From the NCBI GenBank assembly GCA_965228645.1, contig OZ245827.1, forward strand, positions 2,369,694 through 2,433,693: a DNA stretch of 64,000 bases. Reading direction: 5' to 3'. How positions within the stretch are numbered: position 1 is the stretch's first letter; the number at the start of each line of letters is the position of its first letter. Positions 30,701 to 34,401 of this stretch are shown here, piece by piece. This DNA is from Phycisphaerales bacterium (GTDB lineage Bacteria; Planctomycetota; Phycisphaerae; Phycisphaerales; UBA1924). Made by a program: the position numbers.

Positions 30701-33700
30701 TGATCCCCGCTGCGGGCATCGCGTCCTGCGTGCGCACGATGCCCGTCAATTCCATTGGCTCGCCGGGCTCATCGCTGGGCGCAAGACGCGACTCCGGAAC
30801 GAGTTCGTCGGGCAAGCCAGCGAAGACCTCTTCGCATCCCTCGCAAGGCAGGCCCACCACGGGCTCGCTAGCCGTGACAACGGATGAGACGCTCTTGGGT
30901 ACGCCTGCGGGCTCGGCTCTCTCTGAGCAAGCGACCAGAACCAGAGGCACAAGCACGATCGCACGCGAGGGGGGCATGAATTCTGTTTACCGCCGGTCTC
31001 TGGAGCGGGTGCGAGTGGACCGGGTTTCCATGTACACTGGGGCGATGGGTATCGGCGACTGGCTCTTTGGGAAGGCCCGGGACGATCAGCTCCCGGGCAA
31101 CGGGCACGCTCAGGACATCCAGAGCGTCGGCGTGACGCTGATCGACCCCGAGGGGGACCGCCTGGACACCCATCGGGCGCTCATGGATGCGATCGTGGGC
31201 GCCGCGGGCGTCGCCGGGTTTGCCGCCGGGGCGATCGACGAGAAGCTCCTGCGGGGCGGGCCCCACACGCACACGCTGCGGATCGAGGGCCCGGACGCCG
31301 AGGCGATCTTCGAGGCCATCGCCCCCACCATCGAGGGTGTCCCCCTGCCCGTCGGCTCGCACGCGATCCTGACCTACGGGAGCGATCCCACAGCCAGGCA
31401 CGAGCGCGTCGATCTGCAGTGGGATGGATAAAGCGCCCAAAGGGCGTGCGGTATCATGGGATTTGGCGCACAGCGGAGGTTGAACGATGCCCAATACGAC
31501 GCCCGAGCACGACGAGCGGATCAGGACGATGACCTTTGCCTCGGTGTACCCGCACTACGTGACGAAGGTCGAGAAGAAGGGGCGGACGATCGAGGAGCTG
31601 CACAGCGTGATCCGCTGGCTGACCGGGTTCAGCGACGCGCAGATCCAGAAGCACATCGACGCCAACTCCACCTTCGAGGCCTTCTTCGCCAAGGCGAAGC
31701 TCCACAAGAACGCGGAGCTCATCAAGGGCGTGATCTGCGGCTACCGGATCGAGGACATCGAGACCCCGCTGACGCGAGAGGTCCGCTACCTCGACAAGCT
31801 GGTCGACGAGCTGGCCAAGGGGCGAAAGATGGAGAAGATCCTGCGGGAGGGGTAGTCGCGGGGTCGGGAGAAGACTCGCCCTCACCCGCCAGCTGCGCAG
31901 GCACCCTCTCCCCCGAGGGGACAGGGAGGACAGATTCGCTGAACGCGCGTGGATTGCATGGCCCAAGGTCTCCTTGCGGGGGGGTTCTTTGGGGTCATGC
32001 CATTGTGTGGCGGGGATTGGGTGGGGGCAAGGGGGAGGGTGGGAGGTCGGGGATTTGGCGCACGAAAAAGGCACCAACTCCATTTTATCTGTTATACACC
32101 TGGGTACACCAAACGCAACTCACTATCACCAGTTCCATTATCTATCCCCACTGCACTCAGAATACTATGAAGTGGCACCAAAATCACAGCCATATTCAAT
32201 CCGCTATTTGACACACACTAACTATTCTGTAATCTACATAACACATGACCGCCGAAATTGCCGTAGCCAACCCGACCGGTGTAGCCCTTGCTGCCGACAG
32301 CGCAGTGACTATTGGATCGAGCAATGAACACAAAGTGTACAACACAGTAAATAAAATTTTTCGTGTCTGTGACGAAGAGCCGGTTGGAAGTATGATCCAC
32401 AATTCGGCAACCTACAGCTTTGCGCCGTGGGAAACTCTGATTAAATCATATCGACATCACTATGGACATGTTAGACGACCTAGGCTAGTTGATTACACAG
32501 ATGACTTCATAGAATTCATTTCAAAACTATCTGGACTACCTGACGTAGGGATCTCGCATTTACTTCATGATGTCGAAAATGTTATTGTCACTATTTCTGA
32601 AGAACTGGATAGCTGGGCCGAATCGCTTTATGGAAGCGGCCAAAGCAAACTGCTGTCTACGCGAAATGTCGCCAAAAAAGCTGTCGATATTGCTGAACAA
32701 ATACAAGGCTATCTAATTTCTCGAGATTACTTAGATAAACTTGATGAGAACACGCGCTTTCCGACTCTCCGGACAACCAAATTCAAAAGCACCATAGAAG
32801 GTATTGTCAATCGTACTTTTTCAAAGCCCGTAGTTTCTAAAATGCTTATCAGCTTGCTGGTTGATATCGCAGACGAGATTGCTCGACGAGGCGCACCTCA
32901 TTCTCCCGAAAGTGGAGTAGTCGTCGCTGGTTTTGGTGTTGACGAATATTTTCCCGTAATAACTTCTTTTAATATCAATACGCCGATAGATGGCATAGTG
33001 CGGCGCCAAGCCATGCGTGTATACGAGTGCAAACCAGGCAATGACGCTGTTCTTATTCCATATGCTCAGACCGATGTAGTCGAACTATTTATGGACGGAA
33101 TAAGCCCCATATTAGCAAAATATCTAAGCAATCAAATAGAACAAACTATACGGAACGTTGCAGATGCTGTATATCAAGCTATGGTCCCAAACGCAACATC
33201 GCAAATGACGACCAAATTCCAGCAACAGATCCAACAAGGGACTGACAATGTGATTCGCAAACTTGCCGATGAAACTATTCAGTGGCAGAAAAAATATATT
33301 TCAGGCCCAGTGGTTGAGGCAATACGACACTTACCACTTGATGAGCTGGCAAGCCTAGCTGAATCAATGGTGAAAAATACCGCACTCCGACGCCGCGTTT
33401 CATTTGATCTTGAAACGGTTGGTGGACCTGTAGATGTGGCCGTAATCTCTAAGGGAGATGGAATGGTCTGGATGGAACGCAAACACTATTTCCGACCGGA
33501 GCTCAATAGCCATTTCTTTGCACGAGAACTACGCATCCCGCAATCATAACCCCACAAACTGACAACACTTATACAGTTACCTCGCAGATAAGGCGATGAA
33601 GTAAAGGGAAGCTATACTAAGTGGACACAAGGAGAGTGATCCGTGCCTGAAAAAACACCTGCAACTCTTGATGAATTCCGCAAGAAATACTTGCCCGGTA

Positions 33701-34401
33701 CTACAAATTCAACTAACCGATCGCGGATTTTGACTAATCACGATTATTCAGGAAGTGACATACTATCTGATAGTGTCAAAAGTGCTATTGCTGACATCAA
33801 AAAATCGCTGTCTAAAATAAAGCCCCCAGCTCAAAATTAACTGAGCTGGGAGTGTAAATCTAATTAATAATCAAAGTCTTCGTCATGCCCATGCCCGCCC
33901 TTGGCCTTCTTCTCCTTGAGCTCGACGATGGCAGCGTCGGTGGTCAGGAGGAGGGCGGCGATGGAGGCGGCGTTCTGGAGGGCGGTGCGCTCGACCTTGG
34001 TGGGAACGATGACGCCCATCTGGACGAGGTCCCCGTACTCGTGGGTGACCGCGTTGTACCCGAAGTTGGTGTCGCCCGATTCCTCGATCTTGGAGGCGAT
34101 GACGGAGCCGTCGAGGCCGCAGTTGGCTGCGATCTGCTTGACGGGGGCTGAGACGGCGCGGGAGACGATGTCGATCCCGACGCGCTGGTCGCCCGTGGCC
34201 TTCTTCTTGAGGGCTTCGAGGGCGCGCCGGGCGCGGAGGATGGCGACGCCCCCACCGGGGAGGATGCCCTCCTCGGCTGCAGCGCGGCAGGAGTGGAGCG
34301 CATCCTCGACGCGGTCCTTCTTCTCCTTCATCTCGACCTCGGTCGCTGCGCCAACGTTGATCTGGGCGACGCCGCCGGCGAGCTTGGCGAGGCGCTCTTC
34401 G

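Follow-up and report, generated by a model that had tools for sequence, protein, structure and literature searches.

A predicted proteasome-fold hydrolase of the PMI-4 type and the small partner encoded behind it: a candidate mobile anti-phage module

The name PMI, which stands for Proteasome homolog with Multiple Insertions, comes from the classification of Fuchs, Alva and Lupas in 2021 (PMC8665760), the sole paper found that treats PMI-4 as a proteasome homolog. In size, PMI-4 ranks first among the 22 proteasome-homolog families that were catalogued that year without a clue to function (PMC8665760). It shares with PMI-3 the defining insertion after H1/H2 and a second one between H3/H4, and its range covers Proteobacteria, Firmicutes, Actinobacteria, Bacteroidetes, PVC, Cyanobacteria, Euryarchaeota and phages, while the 28 sequences of PMI-3 come only from Proteobacteria, other bacteria and Euryarchaeota (PMC8665760). 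Insertions of the PMI type are expected to hinder ring formation (PMC8665760). For PMI-4, the portions of that study covered here report no informative genomic context and no co-occurring gene. According to the portions covered of three further papers, the Ser129/Asp166 pair is required for proteasome activity (PMC11947121), Anbu binds epoxomicin via Thr1 yet is inactive on standard substrates (PMC5666114), and connectase demonstrates that the proteasome fold can act as a specific transpeptidase (PMC7980362).

The window, which is the whole 64-kb stretch of DNA analysed, carries a large ORF and, after a gap of 93 nt, a small partner ORF on the same strand (Table 1). Both are real genes, and the 65-aa ORF lies at the position behind the large gene that the first-pass annotation had given for it. 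The pair is flanked by a DUF2200 gene on one side and by a convergent groEL on the other. GC is 0.45-0.46 in 32001-34000 versus 0.57-0.68 in the remaining window. The minus-strand hairpin is probably the groEL terminator. The left-border element has no Rfam match and is present in two copies in one of the two same-genus genomes. The ORF pair itself yields no match to Rfam and promoter-like sites at chance level. Neither same-genus genome contains the large gene, and the same slot behind groEL is occupied in both by unrelated low-GC ORFs, one with a weak HNH match, which identifies a swap site. A functional link of the pair to groEL was rejected on the same grounds, the association with the chaperonin being incidental. 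The pair had been described as a prophage/satellite module. This does not hold for the window copy, which lies outside any prophage, since its flanks are ordinary chromosomal genes; it occupies the swap slot, and a tRNA scan of the 64-kb window found none.

Table 1. Features of the locus, with positions counted along the window
Feature	Position	Strand	Remark
Left-border element, about 145 nt	31923..32064	no strand	kept in both same-genus genomes
Low-GC cassette in swap slot behind groEL stop	32065..33860	no strand	
Large ORF, 434 aa, start MTAE	32245..33549	+	proteasome-beta-fold N-terminal-threonine hydrolase, PMI-4 type (predicted)
Partner ORF, 65 aa, GTG start, AGGAG 8 nt upstream	33643..33840	+	
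Hairpin, 12 pairs plus T tail, overlaps partner stop	33823..33852	-	consensus scan only

The large protein matches PHROG 5990 (E 8e-98) and has no match among the families of Pfam, NCBIfam or PADLOC, as had been noted at the first pass. Its structure model (pLDDT 91.8) features a beta-sandwich core with flanking helices H1-H4, and the top Foldseek matches are Anbu and 20S subunits (best E 7e-5), again in line with the earlier listing. The VIA comparison gives Z 17.8 with 20S beta (182 aligned, rmsd 3.2), 16.5 with Anbu, 13.0 with HslV, 12.9 with BPH, 11.5 with connectase and about 10 or less with other Ntn hydrolases. As modelled, the 434-aa protein has a proteasome-like Ntn hydrolase fold. 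The two helical insertions reported before are recovered in the model, the first at about residues 100-215 (helices 102-215), between H81-94 and strand 223-229, the second at residues 288-361, between helices H276-284 and H365-385. Strands 38-40 and 47-53 are adjacent, leaving no insertion at S3/S4, and the C-terminal helix has 8 residues of low confidence. A PDB sequence search gave nothing significant (best E 0.012, to cullin coiled coils; archaeal beta E 0.34), nor did hhalign against single Anbu and beta sequences. In the ESM Atlas the matches are clusters without a name and a single proteasome cluster, whose 0.90 falls short of the recognition mark of that resource. A search for fused forms of 806-2300 aa found none, a weak indication.

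The architecture of the model, with a long insertion after H1/H2, one between H3/H4 and none at S3/S4, and the wide bacterial range that includes Euryarchaeota and phages are those of PMI-4, which the large protein matches on architecture and distribution, not on sequence comparison. The PMI-4 representative HDY66466.1 (KEGG OC 661505-661513) does not figure among the family members listed in this analysis. Assignment to PMI-3 was rejected because the family spans Firmicutes, Cyanobacteria, Actinobacteria, Bacteroidetes and phages and comprises 3856 clusters versus 28 sequences; PMI-4 alone has the taxonomic spread seen here. The locus had been presented as undescribed and its product as a new stand-alone proteasome-fold family. 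This has to be withdrawn, as the protein family matches one already in print, catalogued computationally in 2021 as PMI-4 (PMC8665760).

Residues T2, D18 and K37 are the predicted equivalents of Thr1/Asp17/Lys33, T2 becoming amino-terminal after a presumed removal of the initiator Met; the hhalign register of the three with archaeal beta is non-significant. The first-pass list of invariant residues (T2, D18, K37, D397) stands for the last three, which together with S19 are invariant in an alignment of 118 sequences, while T2 is found there in at least 90%. Among 102 full-length representatives (start M[TS]xE, 400-480 aa), T2, D18, S19 and K37 are invariant (102/102, for T2 partly by the filter used), as are K67, V392, D397, W409, K413, F416 and N421. 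Candidates for the Gly47 of the oxyanion hole are G48 (95/102) and A/G55. In a register set by eye, with Anbu and with sequences of archaeal beta as references, the Ser129 position is Q275 in 100/102 and the Asp166 position is residue 389, which is variable, so that the Ser129/Asp166 pair of 20S proteasome beta is not kept in register in the family. By the same alignment by eye, D397 is the Asp after a GGP motif and not the catalytic Asp166 that the earlier list could have been read to imply. The conserved E390 and T/S391 may substitute for the missing pair. A catalytically dead scaffold that acts by binding through its insertions would agree with a second catalytic pair out of register, but it is highly improbable in view of the complete conservation of T2 (partly by filter), D18, S19 and K37 and of the candidate substitutes at 390 and 391. 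Catalysis by the large protein is putative but likely, though narrow or conditional, as the Ser129/Asp166 pair is not kept and Anbu, which likewise departs from it, is inactive on standard substrates. Note that the change of Ser129 to Gln275, the variability of the Asp166 position and the behaviour of Anbu are also the points that speak against a peptidase reading.

The large gene is widespread and patchy. A profile search returned 6408 clusters (50% identity) at E<=1e-3 and 3856 at E<=1e-30, and 4593 of 8000 scored candidates are homologs of the large protein. A locus search with the single protein gave no loci; those analysed came from an alignment query. Within the phylum, 9 of 301 genomes carry the gene at E<=1e-3 (5 full-length), within the family 2 of 201, and two variants occur in 9 and 13 of 5426 E. 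coli genomes. Phage records carry it in 13 of 50,697 cases, 7 of the 13 being streptococcal satellites, and in phage MW358929 the gene and a 58-aa ORF lie between Q and the lysis genes, all as stated at the outset; among plasmid records the count is 10 of 72,556. The earlier observation that GC of the large gene lies below that of its flanks extends to 50 of 51 long GTDB loci. The two-gene unit is mobile.

The defence-like context, for which the first-pass annotation had no background control, was assessed at 24 GTDB loci with three genes on each side (simple gene caller, PADLOC E<=1e-15) and distant regions of the same contigs as controls, 3 of 27 pairs being left out for size. PADLOC matches were found for 24 of 141 neighbouring proteins versus 6 of 142 controls (Fisher p 4e-4) and at 14 of 24 loci versus 5 of 24 (Fisher p 0.017), figures that overstate the independence of loci since some come from related genomes. 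Among the specific matches are type I, IIG and III restriction-modification, SspE, BilD, RmrA and a TIR protein; generic ones are numerous too (IS21 transposition genes, TnpB, TatD, RecQ, radical SAM). Counting specific matches only, a choice made post hoc, leaves 7/24 versus 1/24 loci (p 0.048). In 39 non-redundant viral loci, tallied without background control and with 76 of 143 called neighbours scanned, the gene lies behind a same-strand repressor/HTH gene in 10, beside lysis genes in 11, beside an integrase in 3 and within head/tail genes in 5, the remaining 10 being left unassigned. The E. coli copies occupy two positions, one immediately after the repressor in a RecET-type prophage, as lambda rexAB does, the other in antisense orientation between Q and the methylase-lysis cassette. 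Defences expressed by the lysogen, such as lambda rexAB, typically lie in such places, linked to a repressor or between Q and the lysis genes. In four RNA libraries, taken from as many studies, both ORFs of the E. coli locus L126 are covered by one contig, from which strand, level and single transcript are not readable; the flanking lysis, methylase and Q genes are thinly covered in these libraries, a contrast given no weight as the libraries had been chosen for containing the gene.

The defence role itself we infer from this context, and a role of some kind in defence is likely. It is distinctly unlikely that the pair has no anti-phage function and serves on mobile DNA as an addiction-type toxin-antitoxin system or as an accessory for stress or proteostasis. 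Low GC, patchiness and mobile-element neighbours would fit any selfish cassette, the pair lies tail to tail with groEL in the window and 10 of the 24 GTDB loci have no PADLOC neighbour, but the unrelated genes in the groEL slot of same-genus genomes, the low plasmid carriage (10/72,556 records) and the lysogen-type positions behind repressors and between Q and lysis genes point the other way. Note that defence islands and moron positions also house addiction and stress genes.

The defence side of the locus is probably not undescribed either. A supplementary table of the DefensePredictor study (PMC13092281, supplementary file 1) labels the 427-aa E. coli protein WP_102804436.1 a predicted novel defence gene, with a PF00227 match at residues 1-58 and a log-odds of 5.68, above the strict cut-off of 4. 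The entry is a table row in one of the 10 supplementary files searched; the rows seen name no partner, and the word 'proteasome' is absent from the main text (PMC13092281). Protein P0274, of 427 aa and with a sister locus-tag prefix, has 98% identity with the L126 protein and 31% with the large protein of the window. It is probably WP_102804436.1, so that an E. coli member of the family would already be a predicted defence gene. The literature listings covered show no account of the small partner and no functional test. The protein family and a predicted defence role are thus already known, while the small partner family behind the large gene was not found in print.

The starting set for the partner family was 169 loci, which grouping at 70% identity brought down to 116 clusters; ORFs of 30-110 aa that start between -60 and +120 from the large-gene stop were collected. 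Among 137 such downstream ORFs from 105 loci one similarity group has 54 members, versus groups of at most 6 in three control sets. A profile built from 47 members has a match in 49 of the 109 windows downstream of the large gene and in 0 of 306 controls, which upholds the controlled claim of a partner family; it misses the other 60 downstream windows, recovers 29/47 members in five-fold cross-validation and matches 5 of 65 non-seed loci. When left out of the profile, the partner ORF of the window is found at E 0.0045 (Z=1000). In 30 whole genomes, each of the 13 strong profile matches follows either the large gene or one of its remnants, 11 of the 13 being seeds, and 18 genomes have no strong match. 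A seemingly stand-alone partner in one genome (G307) was rejected, being a near-identical duplicate behind a large-gene fragment beside an IS. The partner is under purifying selection: over 15 of 20 close pairs (5 dropped for <40% identity) its pN/pS is 0.35 and that of the large gene 0.19 (uncorrected, best-scoring ORFs; two pairs with pN > pS).

The small ORF had been called an unannotated one. This fails for 4 of the 6 phage/plasmid records opened, where it is an annotated CDS. None of these four matches the partner profile, and the partners of different clades are therefore positional equivalents and not shown homologs; a single partner family throughout is not shown by their sequences. 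A look by eye at seven loci, most of them missed by filter or profile, found an overlapping small ORF in six, whereas locus L108 has a membrane-protein ORF where the partner is expected. No Pfam, NCBIfam or PADLOC family was found for the partner, and weak PHROG matches were seen in 2 of 47 members. Its layout begins with a short helix that closes with a conserved aromatic-Pro motif and continues with a flexible linker and a long C-terminal helix; in the model of the window partner (pLDDT 71, pTM 0.31) the first helix is short, the linker weak and the second helix 21 residues long. A split-gene origin was rejected because 441 homologs of the large protein include no C-terminal tail >65 aa and none resembling the partner. 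The partner as a Pup-like tag was also rejected, having no conserved C-terminus, and a connectase-type Asp-Pro cleavage site in it was set aside as a probable helix cap.

Binding of the partner to the large protein is weakly predicted. The complex scored 0.42 versus 0.00 for the best control, and its runs have at least 48% of contacts in common with a partner pLDDT of at least 51. The mark used is reached by 116 of 157 solved pairs and 2 of 215 mismatched pairs, but at a score of 0.60 or under by only 18 of the 157 and both mismatches. With a chance that falls a little short of even, the pair is a mobile anti-phage module in which the PMI-4-type predicted threonine peptidase is restrained by its small partner and released on infection. 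Removal of Met would expose Thr1 at synthesis, there being no propeptide, so that the enzyme would be active from the start and require a trans-acting brake. The small helical partner may bind and restrain it, a role that fits a small, fast-evolving protein never fused to the enzyme (0/441 homologs). Infection would release the brake, leading to the cut of a specific host or phage protein and to abortion of the infection. The two insertions would block ring stacking and supply specificity for substrate or trigger. Specificity given by insertions was argued for PMI proteins (PMC8665760) and, in the part of the source covered, shown for connectase (PMC7980362). Insertions at ring interfaces would favour a monomeric or small oligomeric state and a narrow range of substrates, as in connectase (PMC7980362). 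On a wider scale, it is conceivable, at not quite even chances, that this is a widespread bacterial and archaeal anti-phage system in which a proteasome-fold threonine enzyme is silenced by a partner of 60 residues acting as a propeptide in trans and, once released by infection, cuts or cross-links a specific protein.

Other roles for the partner within an anti-phage function were weighed. It could be an obligatory subunit or assembly factor of a complex that cuts or cross-links a phage protein directly, with no cell death, possibly standing in for the propeptide or the Anbu C-terminal helix in an enzyme with connectase-like ligase chemistry. The large protein indeed lacks a propeptide and, as modelled, ends in a helix of just 8 residues, Ser129/Asp166 are not kept, connectase is a specific transpeptidase of proteasome fold (PMC7980362, as far as covered) and the defence-like context applies equally. 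A structural subunit should, however, be better conserved than a mean column identity of 16% and occasionally be fused, which is seen in 0 of 441 homologs, and this role is rather unlikely. It is unlikely, too, that the partner is the substrate of the enzyme, a sensor or pro-effector cleaved on infection whose fragment stops growth. The dedicated gene linkage, the two helices joined by a low-confidence linker and the near-invariant Pro after helix 1 would suit such a substrate, but a conserved effector-like or membrane segment is absent from 47 partners, whose 19-residue hydropathy peaks at 1.26, partners from different clades cannot be aligned with one another and the Asp/Ser-Pro before helix 2 is most simply read as a helix cap.

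If the preferred reading of a restrained enzyme released on phage infection is true, a threonine-peptidase effector class would be added to prokaryotic immunity and the proteasome fold linked to antiviral defence. A true defence role would also be the first function for any PMI family, the proteasome fold being recruited as an immune weapon, and, should the chemistry prove connectase-like, the enzyme may be a new protease or ligase with sequence specificity. The partner, overlooked before, shows what has to be cloned for a test, which the E. coli prophage copies make direct.

Among known systems, PMI-4 shares with the family described here the insertion sites, the free S3/S4, the lack of a propeptide and the range of phyla; what is added to its published description is the partner, the slots in prophages and the association with defence. 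The DefensePredictor candidate, as seen in part, is a table row (PMC13092281). Anbu is the top Foldseek match, with a similar [ST]VGxPxD motif and likewise a non-Ser residue at the Ser129 position, but it has about 240 aa, lacks both insertions and carries a long C-terminal coiled-coil helix H5, in place of which the 434-aa model has its 8-residue terminal helix; Anbu operon genes are absent here. Connectase likewise has the proteasome fold and owes its specificity for one partner protein to a helical insertion, yet it has no H1/H2, carries a two-helix insertion at S3/S4, neither of which applies to the 434-aa model (Z only 11.5), and has a housekeeping role in methanogens. PADLOC-DB 2.0 models of known defence systems match neither protein of the pair, with 0 families for proteins P0001 and P0002 (E<=1e-15) and for P0271, P0347 and P0122 (E<=1e-3). 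Also close are the abortive-infection and type II toxin-antitoxin systems of prophages, with which the locus shares a linked two-gene unit, a large putative effector with a small partner and the accessory slots of lysogens; it differs from them in a partner with no detected DNA-binding domain and in its effector class, a predicted proteasome-fold threonine enzyme.

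The low-GC cargo of the slot behind the groEL stop differs in all three same-genus genomes compared. It is the two-gene module, coding the 434-aa proteasome-beta-fold protein and its 65-aa partner, in the window genome. G515 carries an ORF of 359 aa that matches HNH weakly and a 111-aa ORF in which a GIY-YIG-like motif is recognized by eye. The 550-aa and 150-aa ORFs found in G437 could not be assigned to any known family. The slot may be a defence hot spot that is worth mining. The conserved element at its border is kept in both G515 and G437, with two copies in the latter and one in the window genome. 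A search in two other genera did not find it, and an Rfam search gave no match. Note that a palindromic-looking repeat of 52 nt is found at window positions 31878-31930, several further copies being present elsewhere in G515.

Coordinates of the groEL slot and of its border element in the same-genus genomes
Feature	Window	L230 (G515)	L231 (G437)	Basis or position
Slot behind groEL	32065-33860	3788-5299	4058-6468	Three same-genus genomes
Conserved element, ~145 nt	31923-32064			Left edge of the slot

Genome G307 carries a second, near-identical partner copy (L203, 8338-8866) that follows a 3' remnant of the large gene and adjoins an IS21-like element. Behind position 9338 of L108, a membrane-protein-like ORF overlaps the large-gene stop and takes the place of the small partner; this ORF and the large gene possibly form a variant system.

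The E. coli prophage at locus L126 carries another accessory operon (12880-14911), composed of a ParA-like gene and two unknown genes. A strong match to BilD (L043, 3588-5024) lies three genes upstream of a family member. Such an association of a ubiquitin-like system with the proteasome-like peptidase was observed at this one locus only.
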